Below the pieces are notes generated by a model. That model saw nothing but the letters and a program-made list of their open reading frames with translations. It did no database searches and was not told the origin of the DNA. A program made the position numbers and the translations under genes. A stretch of DNA of 64,000 nt, taken from contig CAKPGL010000001.1 of the NCBI GenBank assembly GCA_934154785.1, forward strand, positions 366,477 through 430,476. Reading direction: 5' to 3'. Origin of the DNA: an uncultured Bacilli bacterium (lineage in GTDB: Bacteria; Bacillota_I; Bacilli_A; RF39; UBA660). Positions within the stretch are counted from its first letter, which is position 1; each line of letters starts with the position of its first letter. Positions 5,848 to 22,432 of the stretch are shown here, piece by piece.

Positions 5848-6838
5848 GAAATGTATAGGTTGTGGCGCTACTTTACAAACAATTAATACTGAAGAAGTTG
5901 GATATGTTAGAGAGCAAAATCTAGAAAAGAGTAGTTTATGTGAAAGATGTTTTCGTATTAGAAATTATGGTGATTATAAAGTAGTTACCAAGGATAATGC
6001 CGAATATTTAAAAATACTAGAAAGTGTTAATACATCTAATGATTTAGTAGTATTAGTTGTAGATGTATTTAATATTAATGCTTATTTAAATAATCTTTCT
6101 AAAATATTAACTAATCCAATTCTTTTAGTTTTATCTAAAAGAGATATTTTACCTAAGGATATTTATGAACAAAAAATACTTGATTATATGGATAAATATA
6201 ATTTAAATATTGTAGACAAAATATTAATAAGTAGTAATAAAAATTATAATTTAGATGAATTATTTAGTATGATAAATAGTTATAAAAGGAGTAATAGAGT
6301 ATACGTAGTAGGAGAAAGTAATGCTGGTAAGTCTACTTTAATTAATAAATTATTGTATAATTATTCAGACAATAAAACAGTAATAACTACTAGTATGTTA
6401 CCATCTACTACTTTAGACACTATTGAAATAGAATTATCTAGTAGTTTAACATTAATAGATACCCCAGGTTTATTAAGTGATGGTAACATTACTAATATAC
6501 TAACTGGTAATGAATTAAAGAAAGTAGTACCTAGTAAAGAGATGAAACCACTTACTTATCAAATAAAAAGTAAACAATATATATTAATAGATAAATATGC
6601 TTATCTAGAGTTCATAGAACCTACTAATGTAACTTTATTTTTATCTAATAAATTAAGAATTGAGAGATTGTTTTCTTATAAAGGTAATAAAAAACTAGTA
6701 AAAAAGGCTTTATCTGTTAAAAATAATGAAGATATTGTTATAAATGGTTTATGTTTTATTAAAGTAAGTAAATCAGCTAAAATAAATATATATATTTTAG
6801 AAGGAGTTAATGTTTATTTAAGAGATTCTCTTATTTAA
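5840..6838 (+). CDS. yqeH: ribosome biogenesis GTPase YqeH
   Basis: N-terminal zinc ribbon (CIGCG...CERCFR) and a circularly permuted GTPase with GESNAGKST. Start taken at the ATG of MNKKCIGCG; the ORF track extends 33 nt further upstream. Confidence 0.8.
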   Translation: MNKKCIGCGATLQTINTEEVGYVREQNLEKSSLCERCFRIRNYGDYKVVTKDNAEYLKILESVNTSNDLVVLVVDVFNINAYLNNLSKILTNPILLVLSKRDILPKDIYEQKILDYMDKYNLNIVDKILISSNKNYNLDELFSMINSYKRSNRVYVVGESNAGKSTLINKLLYNYSDNKTVITTSMLPSTTLDTIEIELSSSLTLIDTPGLLSDGNITNILTGNELKKVVPSKEMKPLTYQIKSKQYILIDKYAYLEFIEPTNVTLFLSNKLRIERLFSYKGNKKLVKKALSVKNNEDIVINGLCFIKVSKSAKINIYILEGVNVYLRDSLI

Positions 6839-6936
6839 GAAATCAATCAATTATTAAATTTCTGATTAGAAATGATAATTGATTGATTTTTTTATCTATT
6901 AGTTATTTGGAATTGAAAAATATATAAAAAAATGTT

Positions 6937-8742
6937 ATGATAGTACTAGATTATGATAGGAGAATGTGTATGTTAGGAACAATTATAGGTACTAGTGATA
7001 ATGAAGTATTAATTAAATTAAATATTAATTTATATGAATTTGGTAGTTTAATCAATTATTATGTAATCATGGAACATGAAGATAGAAAAATAGTTGGAGA
7101 AATAGTTGATATTAAGGATAATATTGCTTATGCTAATTTACTTGGTGAAATTTTAGGTGAAAACTTTGTACCTGGAGTAATAAGAAAACCAGCTTTTTCA
7201 TCGACTGTAAAACTTGTATCAAAAGAAAAGGTGCCACTATTAATAAGTGTTGATAAATATGAAGAAAATAAACATCTTTATATTGGTAATAGTTCCGTTT
7301 ATGATAATGTACCAGTATGTGTTGACATTAACTCATTCTTTAGTAGCCACTTTGCTATATTTGGTTCTACTGGTAGTGGTAAATCCTGTGCCGTAGCGCG
7401 AATTTTACAAAATCTTTTTGAAAAACAACATTCTATTGCGTATAGAGCCAGTATGTTTATATTTGATGCTTATGGTGAATATCATAATGCATTTAAAAAT
7501 ATTAGTAGTAAAGTACCAGAGATAAGTTTTAAAGCTTATACTACGGATACGGGTATAACTGATGCAGAAGTATTAAAAATTCCACTTTGGTTATTAGATG
7601 TTGATGATGTAGCTATATTACTAGGTGCTGAAAATCATAACCAATTACCTATAATAGAAAAAGCTTTAAAGTTAGTTACAGTCTTTGGACAAGAAGAAAG
7701 TTTAGTTATAAAACATAAAAATGATATTATAGCGCGTGCTATTCTTGATATATTAACTAGTGGTAATTTACCTGCACAAATAAGAGATCAAATATTCTCA
7801 ATTTTATCTTATTATAATACTAAGGAATTAAACCTTGAAACAATAATATATCAACCGGGTTATAATCGCCCTTTAAAGCAGTGTTTATTAATAGATGCCA
7901 GTGGTAAGATTAGAGAAATTGATTTATTAACAACTTTCTTTGAAAGTTTCTTAGATGATTCTCTACAATTAAATTTACCAGATGGAACATTTAAATATAC
8001 TTTAAAAAATTTAGTTGATGCTTTTGACTTTGCTCTTATATCTGAAGGAGTATTAAAGAGTGATAAAGTATATGATGACGCTAATGTATTAAAGGTACGT
8101 TTACATTCTTTACTTAATAGTAATAAAAGTATTTATTTTGATGTGCCAGAATATATTACAAAACAACAATATATTAGAAACTTAATTACAGCCCCAAATG
8201 GTCGTAAAGCACAAATTATTAATTTCAATATTAACTCTGTAGATGATAGATTTGCTAAAGTAATTACTAAAATATATTCTAAATTATTATTTAGTTATGC
8301 TAAAGAATTAGAAAATAGAGCGTCTATTCCGTTCCATATATTACTAGAAGAAGCACACAGATATGTTCAAAATGATAGTGATATTAACTTATTAGGTTAT
8401 AATATATTTGATAGAATAGCTAAAGAGGGTAGAAAATATGGTGTACTTTTAGGGCTTATCACACAACGTCCTTCAGAAATGTCACCAACTACTTTATCAC
8501 AGTGTAATAACTTTATTATATTTAAGATGCAACACCCTATAGATGTAGATTATATTAGAGAAATGGTTCCTAATATTACTGATGAAACAGTAAAGAAACT
8601 TAAGATTTTACCTCCAGGAAATTGTATAGCTTTTGGATTAGCATTTAAAATACCAGTATTTATAAAATTAGCTATGCCAGATCCAGAACCATCTAGCAGT
8701 AGTTGTGATATTAGTGGTGTTTGGTTTGTAAATAAAGGATGA
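6937..8742 (+). CDS. HerA/FtsK-superfamily ATPase (DUF87-like) with an N-terminal HAS-barrel-like domain
   Basis: Walker A motif FGSTGSGKSC. HerA-type C-terminal motif GLITQRPSEMSPTTLSQCNNFIIFKMQHP. The N-terminal ~100 aa beta-rich region resembles a HAS barrel. The likely start is the ATG at 6970 (MLGTIIG), after a GGAG RBS. Confidence 0.6.
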   Translation: MIVLDYDRRMCMLGTIIGTSDNEVLIKLNINLYEFGSLINYYVIMEHEDRKIVGEIVDIKDNIAYANLLGEILGENFVPGVIRKPAFSSTVKLVSKEKVPLLISVDKYEENKHLYIGNSSVYDNVPVCVDINSFFSSHFAIFGSTGSGKSCAVARILQNLFEKQHSIAYRASMFIFDAYGEYHNAFKNISSKVPEISFKAYTTDTGITDAEVLKIPLWLLDVDDVAILLGAENHNQLPIIEKALKLVTVFGQEESLVIKHKNDIIARAILDILTSGNLPAQIRDQIFSILSYYNTKELNLETIIYQPGYNRPLKQCLLIDASGKIREIDLLTTFFESFLDDSLQLNLPDGTFKYTLKNLVDAFDFALISEGVLKSDKVYDDANVLKVRLHSLLNSNKSIYFDVPEYITKQQYIRNLITAPNGRKAQIINFNINSVDDRFAKVITKIYSKLLFSYAKELENRASIPFHILLEEAHRYVQNDSDINLLGYNIFDRIAKEGRKYGVLLGLITQRPSEMSPTTLSQCNNFIIFKMQHPIDVDYIREMVPNITDETVKKLKILPPGNCIAFGLAFKIPVFIKLAMPDPEPSSSSCDISGVWFVNKG

Positions 8743-14050: not shown

Positions 14051-14659
14051 ATGACTGATTTAGATACAATAAAAAATACATTAGATACTAATACATATTT
14101 ATCACAAGAAATGAAAGATAATATCTTTGAATTAGTAGTTCTATTTAATAAAAACTTTAATCAAATAGCACTCAATAATCTTAATGAAAGATTAAAAACT
14201 TTAAAAATAGAAAAAATAAGTAGTTTTTTAAGTAAAAGAGTTTCTAGATATGATATACATAAAAATACTATTTATTTTAATGATAAAGAATTAAAAAAAG
14301 ACTATGATGTTCGTCACATATTAATGTTAGAATTAATAAATATTATTTCATCAAATAATGAATTTAGTGGATTTAACTATGAAGATAAATTTGAAGCTTT
14401 AAATATTGGATATACAGAAATGCTTGCTAATTACTTAGTTGGTAATGATGGAGAAGAAATGATTTATCCACATGAAGCAGTAATGGCCAATTTACTTTCA
14501 ATTGTAATTGGAGAAGATGTACTAGAAAAAGCATATTTTCAAAATGATTATAAATTATTATTAGATAATGTAAAGAAAGTAGGAATTGAATTAGCTGGAA
14601 AAAATGGATTTATGAATTGGAATAGTTTAGCTAATTATTATTCTAATAGGGGAGAATAA
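14051..14659 (+). CDS. hypothetical protein (202 aa)
   Basis: ORF with a GGGTGA RBS. No recognised motif. Confidence 0.4.
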   Translation: MTDLDTIKNTLDTNTYLSQEMKDNIFELVVLFNKNFNQIALNNLNERLKTLKIEKISSFLSKRVSRYDIHKNTIYFNDKELKKDYDVRHILMLELINIISSNNEFSGFNYEDKFEALNIGYTEMLANYLVGNDGEEMIYPHEAVMANLLSIVIGEDVLEKAYFQNDYKLLLDNVKKVGIELAGKNGFMNWNSLANYYSNRGE

Positions 14660-14660
14660 A

Positions 14661-14918
14661 ATGGAATTTTTAAATTGGGGAAACAGTGGCAAATGGAATT
14701 TTGATAAAATTCAAGAAGGTTTTATTCGTATGATTTGTAATTGCGAATTAACTAAAGAACAAGTTGAGAGAATTTCTGCTAATTTAATATTTGATAATAG
14801 ATGTTTAAATAGTAAAGGTTTTAATAAGACATCTATTGAAAGATTTGATTTAGAAAAAGATTCTCTATTAATGGATGCTAGTAAATGGATAGAAGAAACG
14901 CATAAAAAAGTTATTTAG
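14661..14918 (+). CDS. hypothetical protein (85 aa), starting 2 nt after the previous gene
   Basis: ORF with a GGGGAG RBS. No recognised motif. Confidence 0.35.
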   Translation: MEFLNWGNSGKWNFDKIQEGFIRMICNCELTKEQVERISANLIFDNRCLNSKGFNKTSIERFDLEKDSLLMDASKWIEETHKKVI

Positions 14919-16233: not shown

Positions 16234-16273
16234 TCATCTTTTCTTTTTTTTAAACATTATGTTCAAAACTCAT

Positions 16274-16302
16274 TGACTTTTTTTGATAAATTATATAAAA
16301 TT
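16274..16302 (+). promoter_or_regulatory. candidate sigma-A-type promoter for the TasA-like gene array
   Basis: TTGACT followed, about 16 nt later, by a TAAAAT/TATAAA -10 region. It is the only long intergenic region between tig and the array. Confidence 0.3.
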
Positions 16303-16392: not shown

Positions 16393-16980
16393 ATGGAAAA
16401 CAATGATAAGAAGTTTAGAGCTTTAGCGATAGCTGCTATATGTATTGCAATAGTTGGTATTTCAATTGCGTATGCTGCATTAGGTGCTGTATTAAATGTA
16501 ACAGGTACTGCTACTGTTAGTACAGCAAACTCTTGGAATGTTGCGGCAACACAAGGTAGTTGTACTAAAACTGCTGGTAGTCCAAGTGTTACTAAAAATT
16601 TAACTACTGTTGGTCAAACTGCTACTTGGTCAGCTTCATTTGTTGCTCCGGGGGATCAAATAACTTGTACATTTGATTGGACAAATTCTGGTAGTATCGA
16701 CGCAGCAGTTACAAATTTAGTTGTTAATGCTAGTGGCGACGCAAAAGATTATTTTACTTATAATGTTACAATGGGAACTACAGCTTTAAGTGCAGTTGTG
16801 CCTAAAAACAAATATTTAAAAGCTGGTAGTACAAAAACTGTTACTATGGTAGTTACATTTGATGAAAATAGCAACTTAACAAGTCAACAATTAGCTGACC
16901 TTGATACAAAATCTGCAACATTTACAGCTGCTTTTGAATTTGAACAAGCAGATAGTAGTATTACTTATACCGAATTATAA
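16393..16980 (+). CDS. TasA/camelysin-like secreted protein with a SipW-type signal peptide (paralog 1)
   Basis: Basic N-terminus, a hydrophobic segment and VAYA|ALGAVLNVTGTATV. It is immediately upstream of a SipW-like peptidase. Conserved C-terminus ATFTAAFEFEQADSSITYTEL. Confidence 0.5.
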   Translation: MENNDKKFRALAIAAICIAIVGISIAYAALGAVLNVTGTATVSTANSWNVAATQGSCTKTAGSPSVTKNLTTVGQTATWSASFVAPGDQITCTFDWTNSGSIDAAVTNLVVNASGDAKDYFTYNVTMGTTALSAVVPKNKYLKAGSTKTVTMVVTFDENSNLTSQQLADLDTKSATFTAAFEFEQADSSITYTEL

Positions 16981-17069: not shown

Positions 17070-17666
17070 ATGGGAAAAGATAGAAAATTTAGAACATTAG
17101 CTATTGCTGCAATTTGTGTAGCTATAGTTGGCGTATCAGTTGCATACGCAGCATTAAGCGCAGCATTAAATGTAACAGGTACTGCTACTGTTGATACAGC
17201 AGGTTCTTGGAATGTTACTCCTACACCTGTAAAATGTACAGCAAAAAATGGAGCATATTTCATAACAGGAGAAGAACATGTAACTACTAAAGATTTTACT
17301 GCAGTAGGTGGAACTGTTAATTGGGATGCAACATTTACAGCACCAAAACAATCAGTAACTTGTACATTTAGTTGGACTAACGGTGGTTCAATTGATGCTG
17401 CTGTTAAAAAATTAGTTGCTACAGTTAATGGAACTCAAGCTGCTAATTTTGATTACACAGTTACAATGGGAAATACAAAATTAACTCCAACTACACCTAA
17501 TAATAAGGTTTTAAAAGCTGGTAGTACAAAAAATGTTACAATGACAGTTATCTTTGATAAAGATGGTAAACTTGAAACATTACCTACAACAGAAGAAACT
17601 GCAACATTTACAGCTGCTTTTGAATTTGCACAAGCAGATAGTAGTGTAACTTATACTGAATTATAA
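17070..17666 (+). CDS. TasA/camelysin-like secreted protein with a SipW-type signal peptide (paralog 2)
   Basis: Same N-terminal motif (KFRTLAIAAICVAIVGVSVAYAALSAALNVTGTATV) and the same C-terminal ~22 aa as paralogs 1 and 3. Confidence 0.5.
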   Translation: MGKDRKFRTLAIAAICVAIVGVSVAYAALSAALNVTGTATVDTAGSWNVTPTPVKCTAKNGAYFITGEEHVTTKDFTAVGGTVNWDATFTAPKQSVTCTFSWTNGGSIDAAVKKLVATVNGTQAANFDYTVTMGNTKLTPTTPNNKVLKAGSTKNVTMTVIFDKDGKLETLPTTEETATFTAAFEFAQADSSVTYTEL

Positions 17667-17684: not shown

Positions 17685-18284
17685 ATGGAAAAAGATAGAA
17701 AATTTAGAGCATTAGCAATTGCTGCAATTTGTGTAGCAGTAGTTGGTGTATCAGTTGCATATGCTGCATTAGGTGCTGCATTAAATGTAACAGGTACTGC
17801 TACTGTTAGTACTAAAGATTCTTGGAATGTAGTCGCTACAAATGCTACTTGTAGAGCTACAGGACAAGCATATTTCTTAGGAACAGATGACCAACATTTA
17901 ACAGAAAAAGTATTTAATGTTGATGGAACTTCATTAACTTGGGATGCAACATTTACCGCACCAAAAGATGCTGTAACTTGTACATTTACTTGGACTAATG
18001 GTGGTTCAATTGATGCTGCTGTTAAAAAATTAGTTGCTGATAAATCAGGAACTCAAGCTGCTAATTTTACTTATGATATTAAAATTGGTGATACTGCTAT
18101 TACTACAGAAAATATAACTGGTAAATACTTAAAAGCTAAAACTTCAAAAGAAGTTACAATTGTTGTTACTTTTGATAAAGATGGTAATCTTACAACATTA
18201 CCTACAACAAAAGAAACTGCAACATTTACAGCTGCTTTTGAATTTGCGCAAGCAGATAGTAGTACAACTTATACAGAATTATAA
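17685..18284 (+). CDS. TasA/camelysin-like secreted protein with a SipW-type signal peptide (paralog 3)
   Basis: Same conserved N- and C-termini. The central ~100 aa diverge between the paralogs. Confidence 0.5.
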   Translation: MEKDRKFRALAIAAICVAVVGVSVAYAALGAALNVTGTATVSTKDSWNVVATNATCRATGQAYFLGTDDQHLTEKVFNVDGTSLTWDATFTAPKDAVTCTFTWTNGGSIDAAVKKLVADKSGTQAANFTYDIKIGDTAITTENITGKYLKAKTSKEVTIVVTFDKDGNLTTLPTTKETATFTAAFEFAQADSSTTYTEL

Positions 18285-18300
18285 TATTAAAGGGATGTGT

Positions 18301-18324
18301 GAGCAAAAGGAAATCCTTTTGCTC
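18301..18324 (+). promoter_or_regulatory. stem-loop between the subunit genes and the peptidase gene; possible partial terminator or attenuator
   Basis: gagcaaaagg-aaat-ccttttgctc, a 10-bp stem with no downstream T-run. Confidence 0.3.
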
Positions 18325-18370
18325 TCATATCGATTATGTATTTAATACAAGAATATTAAAGGGTGATAAA

Positions 18371-19528
18371 ATGATGATGAGATTAAAAAAAATCTTTAAT
18401 AAAGCATATCTAATGCAATTTTTAATAGTTATCATGGTTTTATTTAATATTTTTGTATTAAATACGTATAGACTAAATACTTGGTATCCAACATTATATT
18501 GGGTTGCTTTAGCAATTATTTCTTATTTGATATTTGGATTAAGGAATAGGGTTCCATCCAAATTTATTGATGTTATACAACTTGTATTTATTTATTGTAT
18601 GGGATATGAACTTATTACTTATCTTTCTGGGTTGATACTGGGGTTTGTAAGAAGTCCTTATTCAATGCAAATAGTAACAATGATTAAAAATATAGCACCA
18701 TTTTTGGTTATGATCATTGCACAAGAAATAACAAGATATGCTGTAGTTACTAGATATAAAAAAAATAAGTATGTTCTGGTATCAATAACGATAGCGATAA
18801 TCTTATATGAAATATCTTATAGTATTGGTTCATATGATTTAAAGTCAGCAGCTGAGATCGTAAAGATGTTAACTATATTGGTTGGTGGCTCAATAACAAA
18901 AAACTGCTTGTGCTCTTATCTTGTATATAGAGCTGACTATAAACCGTCTATTTTATATAGATGTGTATTTGAACTTATTATTTATGTAGTACCTATATAT
19001 CCAAATTTAGGAGAATATATAGAAGCTATGGTAGCTATGATATTTCCAGTATTGCTTTTAGTTTCTATAATGGGATTATACGAGAAAAAGAAATATCGTA
19101 AAGAAAAGAAAACTTGGTTTGAGATGGTTGTTTTGTGGATTCCATCAATTATTGTAATGCTATTTATAGTGACATTACAAACAGGAGTATTTAAGTATAA
19201 AACAATGGCAATTGGTTCTCAATCAATGTATCCTAATATTAATAAGGGTGATGTTGTAGTAATAGATCAGTTCAAAGATGAGGAAAGATGCAAAGAAGTA
19301 GTTGAAGGGGAAGTTTTGGTATTTAAACATGATGGTATTATTATAGTTCACAGGGTTGTTAAAATAACTAAAAAGAATAATAGGTATATATTTAATACCA
19401 AAGGTGATAATAATAATGCTAAAGATTCTTATGATATAGATCAGTCACAGGTAGTTGGAGTTGCCAAGTTTAGAATTCCATTCATTGGTGGTCCATCCGT
19501 TTGGTTGAGTGAAACAATTAACGGTTAG
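18371..19528 (+). CDS. ER/archaeal-type (SipW-like, S26B) signal peptidase I domain fused to an N-terminal ~300-aa polytopic membrane domain of unknown function
   Basis: C-terminal ~110 aa carry GSQSMYP (catalytic Ser), IIVHRVV (His) and TKGDNNNAKDSYD (the GDNN motif typical of SipW/Sec11-type peptidases). The N-terminal part has about 8 hydrophobic helices. Start taken at MMMRLKK after a GGGTGA RBS. Confidence 0.65.
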   Translation: MMMRLKKIFNKAYLMQFLIVIMVLFNIFVLNTYRLNTWYPTLYWVALAIISYLIFGLRNRVPSKFIDVIQLVFIYCMGYELITYLSGLILGFVRSPYSMQIVTMIKNIAPFLVMIIAQEITRYAVVTRYKKNKYVLVSITIAIILYEISYSIGSYDLKSAAEIVKMLTILVGGSITKNCLCSYLVYRADYKPSILYRCVFELIIYVVPIYPNLGEYIEAMVAMIFPVLLLVSIMGLYEKKKYRKEKKTWFEMVVLWIPSIIVMLFIVTLQTGVFKYKTMAIGSQSMYPNINKGDVVVIDQFKDEERCKEVVEGEVLVFKHDGIIIVHRVVKITKKNNRYIFNTKGDNNNAKDSYDIDQSQVVGVAKFRIPFIGGPSVWLSETING

Positions 19529-19542
19529 AAAGGAATGTATTT

Positions 19543-20709
19543 ATGAGTAATGGTAAAGAAAAGAGTTTAAATACTGAAGAGCAAGAAAAAGTTATAATGA
19601 TTAATGATAATAAGAATGATAAGAATAAAAGTAAACTTAATAAGAGAATTTATATAGATACTCCACTTAGGATATTTGTATTAGCTGGTTTTGTATTTAT
19701 ATTTGCTTTTCTTTCATTAATATTTTTGAAAAAAGGATTGGAAACAAAAACATATACTAGTATTTATTATAGTGAAAAAAGTAATCTAGATTATAAGGTT
19801 TACCTAAAAGAGAATCCTTATTTCAATGAACCTTTTCTTACTAAAGGTAATCAGTATATAGCAAGTTTGATTAATTATATTGATGCGGATTTTAGTTATG
19901 ATTTTAGTGCATCTAATTTAATTGATTACCAATTTCGTTATTTAATTAAAGCTGATGTTACAGTCTATGAAAAAGGAGATACATCTAAGATACTTTATAA
20001 GTCATCTGATACTTTACTTCCAGAAAAAACAGTTCAATACTCTGGAGCAAGTACTTACTCTATTAGAGAGAATGTAAAAATAGATTATGATAAATATAAC
20101 AATATTGTATCATCATTTAAGAGGGATTACTCTTTAGCATTAGAGAGTCAATTAAAGGTTACATTATATGTATTTATGAATGGTACTTATAAAGAGATTA
20201 AACAACCATTATCATCTTCTCAAAATATGAGTTTAACTATTCCATTAACTGAACAAACAATTAATATTTCTATGAATTATAAGGAAGTTAATGATGCTAA
20301 CGTTGTTGAGGAATATTCAAATGTTGAAACAATAAATATTGTATTCTTTGTATTATTTGGTGTATCACTTATTGCTTCATTAGTATTAACTGTTAAATTA
20401 GTTAGATTCTTAAATAAAATTAAGACTAAAGGTACTGAGTATGATAGAATATTAGGAACAATTTTAAAAGATTATGAAGGTATAGTAGCACGTGTTAAAA
20501 AAGTTCCAGATTTTAGTGGTAGAACAGTTATTGAGTTAGAAACTTTTGATGAGATATTGGATATTAGTGAAAAACTAGATAAACCAATCCTATTCATAGA
20601 AATGCATAAACATCAAAAGAGTTGGTTTATAATTGTTAATCATAATGAAATATATAAATATTCTTTAAAACTAGTTGATGTTGATAAAGCTAGTAACGAA
20701 AAGAAATAA
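19543..20709 (+). CDS. bitopic membrane protein (hypothetical), a candidate accessory or anchor component of the fibre locus
   Basis: Charged N-terminus, a TM helix at about residues 45-65, a ~190-aa extracytoplasmic domain, a second TM helix (INIVFFVLFGVSLIASLVLTV), then a ~100-aa cytoplasmic tail. Last gene before a terminator. Confidence 0.4.
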   Translation: MSNGKEKSLNTEEQEKVIMINDNKNDKNKSKLNKRIYIDTPLRIFVLAGFVFIFAFLSLIFLKKGLETKTYTSIYYSEKSNLDYKVYLKENPYFNEPFLTKGNQYIASLINYIDADFSYDFSASNLIDYQFRYLIKADVTVYEKGDTSKILYKSSDTLLPEKTVQYSGASTYSIRENVKIDYDKYNNIVSSFKRDYSLALESQLKVTLYVFMNGTYKEIKQPLSSSQNMSLTIPLTEQTINISMNYKEVNDANVVEEYSNVETINIVFFVLFGVSLIASLVLTVKLVRFLNKIKTKGTEYDRILGTILKDYEGIVARVKKVPDFSGRTVIELETFDEILDISEKLDKPILFIEMHKHQKSWFIIVNHNEIYKYSLKLVDVDKASNEKK

Positions 20710-20822: not shown

Positions 20823-21455
20823 ATGGAAGATTTGTATAAATATGAAAAAGAATTATATAATAAAAATATAGAATATATTGGTGGTGTTGATGAAGTTGGT
20901 AGAGGTCCTTTAGTAGGACCAGTAGTTGCAGCTTGTGTCGTACTACCAAAAGACTTTGTATTAGAAGGATTAACTGATTCTAAAAAATTAAGTGAGAAAA
21001 AAAGAGATTTATTTTATGAATATATTAATGAGCATTCCTTAGCGTGGGATGTTGGTATAATAGGACCAGAAATAATTGATGAGGTTAATATATATGCTGC
21101 AACTAAACTGGCTATGAAAGAAGCTATTAATAAAGTAAGAAAAAAAATAAATGTTGAACATGTATTAATAGATGCTATGCCACTTGAAATTGATATTCCA
21201 ACGACATCAATTATAAAAGGTGATGCAAAAAGTATTTCTATTGCGGCAGCAAGTGTTATGGCAAAAGTAACTAGAGATAGAATGATGTACGAGTTAGATA
21301 AAAAGTATCCAGAGTATGGTTTTGGTTCTCATAAAGGTTATCCTACTAAAAAACATGTAGAAGCTATAAAAAAATATGGTTTAATAGATGGTTATAGAAA
21401 GTCTTATGGTCCTGTAAAAGAAATATTGGAGGGTGAAATTAATGCAACAAAATAG
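20823..21455 (+). CDS. rnhB: ribonuclease HII
   Basis: GVDEVGRGPLVGPVV and the DDSKKLSEKKR motif. Start taken at the ATG after a GAGG RBS; the ORF track starts at an upstream TTG. Confidence 0.85.
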   Translation: MEDLYKYEKELYNKNIEYIGGVDEVGRGPLVGPVVAACVVLPKDFVLEGLTDSKKLSEKKRDLFYEYINEHSLAWDVGIIGPEIIDEVNIYAATKLAMKEAINKVRKKINVEHVLIDAMPLEIDIPTTSIIKGDAKSISIAAASVMAKVTRDRMMYELDKKYPEYGFGSHKGYPTKKHVEAIKKYGLIDGYRKSYGPVKEILEGEINATK

Positions 21456-21693
21456 TTTTCAAAAAAACGGTTTATTAAATGTAAATCCCTCACCAAATAA
21501 TACTTACAATACTGGTAATTTTGGAAGAAGAAGTATACAAGATATAAAAGATGATATGTATAAGGCTAAAACTAAGAATTTTTCTAATTCTAATATGAAT
21601 GATAATAAACAGCCTACTAATTTAAATAATCTTGGTCAAAACGATCATCGGCAAAGAGTAGAAAATTTACAAAACTTTAATAGATGGAAGTGA
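21442..21693 (+). CDS. N/Q-rich low-complexity protein (hypothetical)
   Basis: ORF with a GGAGGGTGA RBS that overlaps the rnhB 3' end. Compositionally biased. Confidence 0.3.
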   Translation: MQQNSFQKNGLLNVNPSPNNTYNTGNFGRRSIQDIKDDMYKAKTKNFSNSNMNDNKQPTNLNNLGQNDHRQRVENLQNFNRWK

Positions 21694-21697
21694 TTAT

Positions 21698-22432
21698 ATG
21701 TTTGATATTTTTAAAAAGAAAAATCAGCCTACTAATGAGTCTGTTCCCCAAAATGACTTTTTAAGTAATGAAAATGCAGCTTTTAATACTGTTTCAAGTG
21801 AAGACGATTCATTTAAGGATTCTCCAGATTATCAAAGTTTAGTGTATCAAGAGCCTGTATATAATGTACCTAAATATAAAGCTAGTAATTTAAGTAATAT
21901 AGGTGTTGTTGTTAATAGTACAGATGTAGGCTTTGATAAAAATGCTATTAACCCTAATATAAAAACTATAGATATACCAAGTAATGAACAAGAAGAATTA
22001 AATAAATCTATAAAAACAGAAGAGCCAGTTGAGTTATTAGATATATTTTCACCTGCAGATGTAGAAAAAGAAGATGTTATACCAGATGTTTTAAATAATA
22101 ATATAAATGATAATATAAATAATAACTCAAATAGTGAAGAAATTAAAAATAGTATTCAAACTGAGAATAAAGAAAAAGAAAAAAATAGCAGTATTTTTAT
22201 GAATAATAACAATGAAGCTATTGGCATTTCTATATTTGGTTCTAATGATGGCGTAACAAACAAGAATAATTATACTTCAAGCAATCAATTTGAAGAACAA
22301 AAACAGGAGTTAACAAAAGAAGTAGAGTATACTAGTGATGGTAATAAGATATGTCCAAATTGTGGTGCAATACTTAAACCTGATGCCCCAGTATGTTTTA
22401 TGTGTAGTAAAAGTTTTATTTTAAAAAAATAA
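21698..22432 (+). CDS. N-rich low-complexity protein with a C-terminal zinc ribbon
   Basis: Ends with CPNCGAILKPDAPVCFMCS (a CxxC...CxxC motif). Good RBS. Confidence 0.4.
   Translation: MFDIFKKKNQPTNESVPQNDFLSNENAAFNTVSSEDDSFKDSPDYQSLVYQEPVYNVPKYKASNLSNIGVVVNSTDVGFDKNAINPNIKTIDIPSNEQEELNKSIKTEEPVELLDIFSPADVEKEDVIPDVLNNNINDNINNNSNSEEIKNSIQTENKEKEKNSSIFMNNNNEAIGISIFGSNDGVTNKNNYTSSNQFEEQKQELTKEVEYTSDGNKICPNCGAILKPDAPVCFMCSKSFILKK

Follow-up and report, generated by a model that had tools for sequence, protein, structure and literature searches.

The question considered here is why a signal peptidase of the SipW type should carry a large polytopic membrane domain ahead of its catalytic part. It is raised by a gene at positions 18371–19528 of the forward strand of a 64,000-nucleotide (nt) stretch of DNA from an uncultured Bacilli bacterium (GTDB lineage Bacteria; Bacillota_I; Bacilli_A; RF39; UBA660; GenBank assembly GCA_934154785.1, contig CAKPGL010000001.1, positions 366,477–430,476). 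The whole stretch, with a G+C content of 26%, is referred to below as the window. An initial annotation, made from the letters alone, had described the gene product as a SipW-like peptidase fused to an unprecedented membrane domain. Our analysis revealed that the fusion is real, widespread and constrained and that the catalytic residues of the peptidase are intact; of the fusion and of its role as a dedicated peptidase we are highly confident. As to the membrane part, the reading that we favour, and hold to be rather probable, is that an eight-helix domain of the CPBP fold, devoid of catalytic histidines, stands covalently ahead of the anchor helix of a dedicated signal peptidase. The arguments are set out below.

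Reality and extent of the fusion

The gene is an uninterrupted open reading frame (ORF) in the translated window; the ORF first reported is thus confirmed, its length being 385 amino acids (aa) plus stop and not 386 aa. The sequence elements singled out at that time (GSQSMYP, VHRV, GDNN, KNCLCSYLVYRADYK and YRCVFELIIY) are all present in the translation. The same ATG was chosen as the start by independent gene callers on other assemblies, and the homologues of the fused peptidase begin at the equivalent position. An identical or near-identical 385-aa gene was found on at least 22 independent contigs (human-gut and other metagenomes, as well as NCBI metagenome-assembled genomes, MAGs), which excludes an assembly or frameshift artefact; the closest relative in the genome collections is an uncultured Bacilli MAG.

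The possibility that the long ORF is nevertheless an artefact of annotation or assembly, the true product being a short, ordinary SipW started from an internal Met near residue 250–290, had been raised along with the fusion itself. Internal Met codons do exist at residues 252 and 262, but their positions are not conserved, and the Shine-Dalgarno-like sequence precedes the first ATG. Furthermore, the contigs that bear the identical ORF come from independent samples, and in the comparison with a 77%-identical orthologue (L001) the ratio of non-synonymous to synonymous substitution rates (dN/dS) was 0.093 for the N-terminal domain (N-domain) and 0.146 for the remainder, i.e., the N-domain is under strong purifying selection. 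Together with the conservation of the fusion at 24–35% identity across hundreds of clusters, these observations effectively refute the internal start and leave the artefact a practically negligible probability.

The distribution of the fused architecture was followed with the N-domain as the query. Residues 1–255 retrieved 23 clusters with 56–98% identity, in which every complete protein was 371–387 aa long. A second N-domain profile, which took in two relatives of 31–32% identity (L002 from a Bacillota MAG and L003 from an Erysipelotrichaceae MAG), gave 61 clusters, the complete ones being 370–394 aa long and nearly all having PF00717/PF10502. Finally, a search of 1.84 billion representatives with a hidden Markov model (HMM) of the N-domain only yielded 1003 proteins at E ≤ 1e-3 (502 at E ≤ 1e-10), each representing a 50%-identity cluster. 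Lengths and motifs were surveyed in the 147 new representatives found among the best 150 of these matches: the median length was 378 aa, nearly all lay within 365–397 aa, and the N-domain was always located at residues ~1–245. The strict Ser...His-Arg...Lys-Gly-Asp pattern was found in 119 of the 147, and the remaining full-length representatives have the same catalytic residues with conservative variants. The fused architecture is kept down to 24% identity. Nor is the N-terminal region the product of a separate, known gene, as had also been considered: all complete homologues have both the N-domain and the peptidase, and a separate N-domain gene was not found among them. Short matches of 176–301 aa, examined as candidate stand-alone N-domain proteins, look like fragments at contig ends or frameshifted ends and were rejected. 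One 812-aa representative (P0163) contains the N-domain and the start of the peptidase, followed by ~500 aa that resemble metallophosphatase/5'-nucleotidase, and probably reflects a chimeric assembly or a gene that has been disrupted.

Peptidase domain and membrane topology

As had been proposed, the peptidase domain is C-terminal: TIGR02228 matches residues 257–383 with 88.1 bits (cutoff 51.85) and PF00717 scores 25.9 against a cutoff of 23.3, the TIGR02228 and PF10502 alignments beginning at residues 256–257. The score of the Bacillus SipW equivalog NF046067 (68.9 bits) is well below its cutoff of 190. In the Pfam and NCBIfam scans of the whole protein only the peptidase was recognized (Peptidase_S24/S26 in Pfam). 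Ser285 (codon 19223–19225) belongs to GSQSMYP and His327 (codon 19349–19351) to VHRV, while GDNN occupies residues 345–348. In an alignment of 192 homologues, whose median identity to the query is 32%, residues S285, M286, H327, R328, G345, D346 and D352 are found in every sequence (100%). Structurally the model matches SEC11A, at 27% identity, and in the Foldseek comparison of the model with the PDB only the peptidase domain was matched. Judging by these sequence features, the gene encodes a catalytically intact signal peptidase I (SPase I) of the SipW/Sec11 type, for which cleavage of pre-proteins is predicted.

Membrane topology was derived from hydropathy and from an AlphaFold2 (AF2) model built with 41 diverse sequences, with a predicted local distance difference test score (pLDDT) of 81.8; an earlier model from 18 close homologues (pLDDT 62) was set aside as too poor. 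The model has ten helices ahead of the catalytic domain. The chain starts with an amphipathic helix (residues 2–12), which is followed by eight transmembrane (TM) helices, on which hydropathy and the model agree (TM1–TM8 at residues 14–30, 38–55, 65–90, 101–128, 133–154, 160–187, 190–206 and 215–238), then by the basic loop KKKYRKEKK, by TM9 (249–271) and by the beta-rich catalytic domain. The initial annotation had counted about eight helices in a domain of ~300 aa; the eight TM helices stand, but the domain is ~248 aa long and the ninth TM helix is the anchor of the peptidase. All cytoplasmic loops (the N-terminus, GLRNRVPSK, RYKKNK, YRADYK and KKKYRKEKK) obey the positive-inside rule, which places the N-terminus inside and the catalytic domain outside, as cleavage of signal peptides needs. 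The extracytoplasmic loops of the N-domain in the model do not exceed 10 residues. Unlike SipW of Bacillus subtilis, the fused peptidase has no C-terminal TM helix.

Conservation and fold of the N-terminal domain

In the alignment of 192 sequences the best conserved positions of the N-domain are G87, E119 and R122 (99%), P211 (98%) and G91 (97%), followed by P208 (93%), Y216 and P226 (92%), Y196 (90%), Y84, F92 and N107 (89%) and N178 (85%). Codons 18725–18727 and 18734–18736 encode E119 and R122, respectively. Among the 159 sequences with less than 50% identity to the query, TM5 has Phe at position 143 (64%) and an acidic residue, Asp or Glu, at position 147 (87%), while TM7 has Arg at position 197 (69%) and Glu or Asp at position 201 (67%). 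A set of conserved charged residues sits inside TM helices 4–7. In the model the two best conserved outer loops, GFxxSPYS (91–98) and PIxPNLGEY (208–216), come together in a small sheet of two strands, which lies on the outer face and on the same side as the peptidase domain. Cysteines, which had at first looked conserved, occur in only 13–27% of the 192 sequences (Cys76 in 51, Cys179 in 25, Cys181 in 45 and Cys198 in 30), and none of the N-domain columns of the 159 more distant sequences contains His or Cys at a frequency of 20% or more.

The last observation excludes an exosortase/archaeosortase (Cys-Arg-His) as well as a rhomboid-like Ser-His dyad, two of the families against which a search had been advised. 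For the exosortases/archaeosortases, there was no NCBIfam match at E ≤ 0.1, and catalysis by the cysteines is rejected as these are lineage-specific. The features of a rhomboid protease, namely a Ser-His dyad in TM4/TM6 and a match to Pfam Rhomboid, were not found. As for the O-antigen ligase/Wzy family (PF04932), 2 of 41 family members matched it, the best E-value being 0.61, and the large extracytoplasmic loop is absent. Overall, when the 41 members were scanned with Pfam at E ≤ 10, no match to the CPBP, exosortase or rhomboid families and no meaningful Wzy match came up: none of the 41 matched PF02517. The NCBIfam scan of the protein itself gave no CPBP model either. The N-domain was not recognized by sequence in Pfam, in NCBIfam or in the PDB profile search, where only chance matches to amino-acid transporters appeared (E 0.23).

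The N-domain model has the eight-TM Rce1-like fold of the CPBP/type II CAAX proteases; the next helical proteins in the structure comparison (rhodopsin, transporters and a MATE protein) scored 6.4 or less. The fold class CPBP/type II CAAX protease/APH-1 also includes TMEM147 and APH-1, the latter known from gamma-secretase. A common fold has been reported for SpdC and Rce1 (bioRxiv 10.1101/2020.05.21.109470). Active CPBP enzymes, such as Rce1 (PDB 4CAD; PF02517), are marked by three motifs: EExxxR in the first core helix, FxxxH in the second and HxxxD/N in the fourth. These motifs were confirmed in eight annotated plasmid CPBP proteins, fetched as comparators with an invented CPBP-consensus probe; no such comparator gene was found in the window or in the loci studied. 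In one of the eight (L011) the motif-1 Glu occupies helix position ~19, the motif-2 His ~17 and the motif-3 His/Asn ~7 and ~11. In the fused-peptidase family, TM4 carries E119xxR122 with the Glu at helix position 19, TM5 carries F143xxx[D/E]147 with the acidic residue at 15, and TM7 carries R197xxx[E/D]201 at positions 8 and 12, depths that agree with those of the motifs in genuine CPBP proteins. Motif 1 would be represented by ExxR, the residue before the Glu being variable, and the catalytic histidines of motifs 2 and 3 are absent, with Asp/Glu and Arg in the corresponding helices.

We infer from helix order and depth that the N-domain corresponds to a degenerate form of the CPBP core, with other residues in place of both catalytic histidines, and consider it probable, on the strength of the model, that the domain has a CPBP-like fold; our prediction is that it does not work as a canonical glutamic intramembrane protease. 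Profile-profile comparison (hhalign) of the 192-sequence N-domain alignment with the eight CPBP proteins was negative (Prob 2%, P 0.023; P 0.36 for the reversed control), for which reason the domain is termed CPBP-fold-like and not a member of PF02517. The best local match of that comparison, which places Y84..G87..G91..N107 on the CPBP segment G..G..Y...H..NN, is at chance level and was not built on. A different view would be that the N-domain is a generic helical bundle for anchoring, stabilization or localization, only superficially CPBP-like and without a direct role towards the substrate. The lack of detectable sequence homology to any known family agrees with such a bundle, as does the fact that the CPBP similarity comes from one predicted model; we regard this view as very unlikely.

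Predicted substrates and the DUF5305 protein

Directly upstream of the fused peptidase gene lie three genes of predicted fibre subunits, and downstream of it a gene of a DUF5305 protein (Table 1). In each subunit a basic n-region and a long h-region precede the sequence S-[IV]-A-Y-A-A-L-[GS]-A-x-L-N-V-T-G-T-A-T-V, and the site A-Y-A↓A (the arrow marks predicted cleavage) conforms to the -3/-1 rule. The predicted mature proteins are 167–172 aa long and Thr/Ser/Asn-rich, with N-termini ALGA or ALSA, isoelectric points (pI) of 4.4–5.1 and 7.8–11% Asp plus Glu (D+E). They contain no Pfam domain, are unnamed in public data and gave no match at E ≤ 10 in the PDB profile search. Matches to the TasA/camelysin families were below threshold (PF12389, E 0.052; NF046066, E 0.087), as was that to CARDB (E 0.0027). 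As these matches are sub-threshold and the hallmarks of AbpX (an aromatic residue at position 2, an acidic one at position 4, pI ~4 and ~15% D+E) are not found in the window subunits, we call them TasA-like from their context.

The association with the peptidase was compared in ten loci (the window, L002, L003, L008, L009, L010 and L019–L022), whose peptidases share 24–35% identity. In nine of them the products of genes adjoining the fused peptidase contain the motif [IV]-[AG]-[YF]-A-[AT]-L-[ST], with one to eight motif-bearing genes of ~200 aa per locus, and within the 64-kb window the cognate signal motif is confined to the three neighbouring subunit genes. Large proteins (568–6456 aa, some with Flg_new or internal repeats) whose signal motif is likewise of the [YF]-A/S-A-L-S type were also observed beside fused peptidases, none of them adjoining the locus of the window. 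The same enzyme probably processes these large proteins, which are likely to serve as tip, anchor or adhesin.

The DUF5305 gene begins 15 nt after the stop codon of the peptidase gene. A DUF5305 gene annotated by Pfam stands beside the fused peptidase in 6 of the 10 loci, and in L003 a similar gene of 378 aa with two TM helices occupies the same position. The DUF5305 family, to which TafG of the haloarchaeal tafi system belongs, has been proposed as an accessory of dedicated signal peptidases and is sometimes fused to SPase I (PMC11821415; bioRxiv 10.64898/2026.01.04.697558).

Two observations concern the distribution of the subunits and of the whole gene set. Distant 165-aa relatives of the subunits (P0314, P0315 and P0313) are found in Candidatus Saccharimonas (Patescibacteria), so the subunit family reaches beyond Bacillota. 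In L020 an ISL3 transposase and a serine recombinase (51–1352, 6463–8049) flank a set of subunit, peptidase, DUF5305 and 632-aa genes, which hints that the cassette can be mobile.

Proposed function of the membrane domain

Three experimentally characterized systems with degenerate proteins of the CAAX/CPBP type serve as precedents. SpdC binds the single TM helix of SagB, orients its active site and offers a membrane-open cavity and groove to the lipid-linked substrate, the complex having 8+1 = 9 TM helices (bioRxiv 10.1101/2020.05.21.109470). SpbR, a degenerate CAAX-like protein with FxxxD as motif 2, binds both the TM helix of SpsB, via its own TM5 and TM7, and the ectodomain, and controls the activity of SpsB (PMC12260438). 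LnsB is the partner of LnsA in N-acylation of lipoproteins. The fused peptidase unites in one chain the parts seen in these systems, and hence our proposal that the N-domain is a scaffold or a specificity element, a role to which we give about even chances.

In this proposal the pseudoprotease domain would be a non-catalytic membrane scaffold packing against TM9; its outer loops 91–98 and 208–216 would contact the base of the catalytic domain, and the scaffold would determine how high above the membrane, and in which orientation, the Ser285-His327 site is held. A lateral cavity lined by E119/R122, D/E147, K177/N178 and R197/E201 would dock the h-region of the signal peptide, the cognate signal class being that which ends with [IV]-[AG]-[YF]-A↓A-L-[ST] and is borne here by the three ~200-aa subunits and elsewhere also by giant adhesin-like proteins. 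The N-domain would thereby give the enzyme its specificity for operon-encoded fibre subunits and adhesins. Cleavage after A-x-A would free the mature N-terminus ALGAVLNVTG..., which is probably a donor strand for fibre assembly, and the DUF5305 protein would be a further accessory subunit that completes the holoenzyme. The docking at TM9, the binding of the signal peptide in the cavity, the cleavage site and the donor-strand assembly are all steps that we infer. A need for a dedicated SPase I in the processing of TasA-superfamily subunits is known from tafi (PMC11821415).

Several points weigh against the scaffold proposal. The docking at TM9, the placing of polar residues in a cavity and the contacts between the loops and the peptidase are conjectural. 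The spacing of Glu and Arg in ExxR departs from the canonical EExxxR. The conservation of E119 and R122 (99%) matches that of the Ser-His pair in the active site of the peptidase, which goes beyond the obvious need of a pure scaffold; it leaves room for a catalytic or ligand-binding role and is the main point that a pure scaffold does not fully explain. SpbR is an inhibitor of its peptidase, neither an activator nor a specificity factor (PMC12260438). Finally, the TasA-like nature of the subunits is a matter of context and of very weak matches.

The strict conservation of E119/R122, equal to that of Ser and His in the peptidase, is also what speaks for the N-domain as a second active intramembrane enzyme, a His-less CPBP derivative using E119, D/E147 and R197. 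Such an enzyme could degrade or trim the cleaved signal peptides in the manner of a signal-peptide peptidase, or modify the new N-terminus. The motif-1 Glu is the catalytic residue of active CPBP enzymes, the set of conserved charged residues lies inside TM helices 4–7, and other CPBP-fold proteins (myxosortase, MroQ) are true processing proteases. On the other hand, the histidines of motifs 2 and 3, present in competent CAAX proteases, are missing here, no N-domain column reaching 20% His; PF02517 is not matched; and SpdC, LnsB and SpbR, with similarly degenerate motifs, are non-catalytic in experiments. A second activity of this kind therefore seems unlikely to us. A bolder reading, in which the N-domain is a working intramembrane enzyme or binding machine that captures the freed signal peptide via Glu119/Arg122 and the buried D/E147-R197-E201 network and either cleaves it or passes the donor strand to the fibre, we judge just as improbable. 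Should it be true, the protein would be a self-contained two-step machine for processing and assembly, and the CPBP superfamily would gain a catalytic variant not seen before.

The inhibitory character of SpbR suggests yet another possibility: the CPBP-like domain may be an autoregulatory brake that keeps the peptidase inhibited or gated, is relieved only by the cognate substrates or by DUF5305, and prevents promiscuous cleavage of other secreted proteins. The SpbR–SpsB pair is the only experimentally characterized pair of a CPBP-like protein and a signal peptidase, and its inhibition acts via the TM helix and the ectodomain; DUF5305 is a near-constant neighbour, and the N-domain shows high conservation in its outer loops. 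However, for more than 500 clusters to keep an inhibitor permanently and covalently attached at 1:1, beside highly expressed substrates, is less economical than positioning or specificity, and the sequence offers nothing to tell gating from scaffolding. Besides, SpbR occurs in Staphylococcaceae. A brake is, in our opinion, rather unlikely.

Comparison with known systems

SipW of B. subtilis and TafD of Haloarcula have the same catalytic domain and residues as the fused peptidase (Ser-His and a conserved Asp; TIGR02228, MEROPS S26B), and their genes likewise form operons with genes of small secreted fibre subunits, that of TafD being also adjacent to a DUF5305 gene. They differ in having two (SipW) or four (TafD) TM helices and no polytopic N-domain, whereas the fused peptidase has eight extra TM helices before the anchor.

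The ten-TM SPase I of the AbpX loci is close to the fused peptidase by description: a TIGR02228 peptidase preceded by about ten helices, with DUF5305 and subunit genes beside it, the subunits being of the TasA superfamily in the AbpX loci and secreted proteins of ~200 aa in the window. In those loci SPase I has ten TM helices instead of two, and it occurs in Bacillota, Chloroflexota and Thermoproteota (bioRxiv 10.64898/2026.01.04.697558). This January 2026 preprint devotes a single sentence to it, in which the membrane part is assigned neither fold nor function, and the published examples are A0A1M6GRN4, A0A2R7Y7S8 and WP_338249487.1. The subunits are different: those of the AbpX loci have an aromatic residue at mature position 2 and an acidic one at position 4, pI ~4 and ~15% D+E, while those of the window begin with A-L-G-A and have pI 4.4–5.1 and 8–11% D+E.

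The SpbR–SpsB pair of Staphylococcus aureus (PMC12260438) resembles the fused peptidase in that a degenerate polytopic CAAX-like protein is combined 1:1 with a type I signal peptidase, and FxxxD replaces FxxxH in SpbR as F143xxx[D/E]147 does in motif 2 of the N-domain. SpbR, however, is a separate inhibitor of the housekeeping P-type (Ser-Lys) peptidase SpsB and is recognizable by HMM as CAAX-like; here an S26B Ser-His enzyme is fused to a domain that is not so recognizable, and its substrates are encoded in the operon. As for SpdC(LyrA)–SagB (PDB 6U0O), the sequence identity is 10%, the partner is a glucosaminidase acting on a lipid-linked glycan, and the two are separate proteins. Compared with active CPBP/type II CAAX proteases, which have EExxxR and two histidines, the N-domain has ExxR, Asp/Glu and Arg.

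In the eukaryotic signal peptidase complex (SEC11 with SPCS1–3) the SPCS subunits are not known to have the CPBP fold, and the analogy is functional only. SipA of Streptococcus pyogenes, a chaperone, is not known to possess the catalytic residues, whereas in the fused peptidase these residues are 100% conserved. According to the title of its entry (SipA/LepA, PDB 4N31), this signal-peptidase homologue is needed for polymerization.

Novelty and significance

The fusion had been announced as unprecedented and as having no counterpart known to have been described. The first claim does not hold, since 1003 clusters share the N-domain and the ten-TM SPase I was remarked on in the preprint cited above; by the same preprint the second is, strictly speaking, wrong, and a polytopic SipW-like peptidase as a bare observation is not new. 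Nor are dedicated peptidases of the SipW/TafD type at loci of the TasA superfamily, or the DUF5305 proteins that accompany them, new to the literature (PMC11821415; bioRxiv 10.64898/2026.01.04.697558). We found no paper, however, on a fusion of this kind or on any connection between SipW-type peptidases and CAAX/CPBP proteins, and for this reason the model-based fold assignment and the reading of the protein as a cis version of SpbR–SpsB or SpdC–SagB, both computational, appear to be new. The SpbR paper does not mention fusions and closes by asking whether direct regulators of signal peptidases exist outside staphylococci (PMC12260438).

The significance of the fusion is seen against the background of the CPBP proteins in general. 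Degenerate CPBP proteins are very common in bacteria, and the function of most of them is unknown. The solved cases (SpdC–SagB, LnsAB and SpbR–SpsB) are scaffolds or regulators of single-pass envelope enzymes. A fusion of a CPBP-fold domain with a signal peptidase in hundreds of clusters acts as a 'Rosetta stone' and suggests that the partnership is old and widespread. Being a system of one polypeptide, it makes the role of the scaffold in the choice or positioning of the substrate accessible to truncation and a few point mutants. The signal class [IV]-[AG]-[YF]-A↓A-L-S marks fibre subunits and giant adhesins of uncultured low-GC gut Bacilli and is of use when surface structures of the human microbiome are annotated. 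Since the N-domain has no Pfam model, its definition would improve the annotation of proteins labelled only as 'signal peptidase I'.

Other features of the locus

Table 1. Features of the fused peptidase gene and its surroundings. Positions refer to the window unless a related contig is named; the arrow marks the predicted cleavage site.
Feature	Position	Strand	Details
Promoter-like TTGACT-17-TAAAAT, candidate promoter of the operon	16273–16301	+	Consensus scan, 10/12; weak, such sites being not enriched relative to shuffles
Fibre-subunit paralogue 1, predicted substrate	16393–16980	+	195 aa; signal peptide SIAYA↓ALGAVLNVTGTATV
Fibre-subunit paralogue 2	17070–17666	+	198 aa; signal peptide ...SVAYA↓ALSAALNVTGTATV; 60% identical to paralogue 1
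Fibre-subunit paralogue 3	17685–18284	+	199 aa; signal peptide ...SVAYA↓ALGAALNVTGTATV
RNA hairpin	18294–18331	+	10-bp perfect core in 16-bp stem; -28 kcal/mol, z -5.15 vs 200 shuffles
Shine-Dalgarno-like AGGGTG	18360–18365	+	5 nt before the ATG at 18371; read from the sequence
N-terminal polytopic domain (residues 1–248)	18371–19114	+	Amphipathic helix and eight TM helices; probable CPBP/Rce1/SpdC-like fold without catalytic His
Family-wide conserved residues of the N-domain			Y84, G87, G91, F92, Y97, N107, E119, R122, F143/D-E147, K177/N178, Y196, R197/E201, P208, P211, G214, Y216, P226
TM9, peptidase anchor (residues 249–271)	19115–19183	+	N-in/C-out; hydropathy, AF2 helix 249–271, start of HMM alignment
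Extracytoplasmic catalytic domain (residues 272–385 and stop)	19184–19528	+	Archaeal/endoplasmic reticulum-type (S26B) signal peptidase I
DUF5305 protein, putative SPase accessory subunit	19543–20709	+	388 aa; two TM helices (36–68, 259–290); PF17231, E 9.4e-13
Large motif-bearing protein	L002 11746–15756		
Large motif-bearing protein	L003 11146–12852		
Large motif-bearing protein	L008 9258–end		
Large motif-bearing protein	L020 4375–6273		
Large motif-bearing protein	L021 1062–2981		
Large motif-bearing protein	L022 3116–6169		

The RNA hairpin is situated in the 86-nt gap between the third subunit gene and the peptidase gene. It has no canonical T-run and was not called by the terminator scan. 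It may be a partial or attenuating terminator, or a stabilizer of the subunit mRNA, that sets the ratio of subunits to peptidase, and may lower the read-through expression of the latter. Terminator-like sites called on the reverse strand at 16915–16931, 17601–17617 and 18219–18235 (GCAGCTGTAAATGTTGC) were rejected, as they are the conserved coding sequence of ATFTAA near the 3' ends of the subunit genes.

All three subunits of the window share the C-terminal extension FEF[EA]QADSSxTYTEL (16930–16977, 17616–17663 and 18234–18281), which is absent from the subunits of L002 and L003 and appears as an 11-residue insertion in the subunit alignment. It could be a lineage-specific C-terminal strand or tag.

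Further upstream, between the genes of a Clp ATPase and of the trigger factor, there are two ORFs of 202 and 85 aa (14051–14659 and 14661–14918, forward strand) that match no family in Pfam or NCBIfam and are conserved on all contigs with the locus. Downstream, two Asn/Gln-rich ORFs of low complexity are located at 21433–21693 and 21698–22432 (forward strand), the second of which ends with a zinc-ribbon-like CPNCG...CFMC. The region 21433–22432 is variable, since in a related contig (L006) it is split into genes of 56 and 77 aa.

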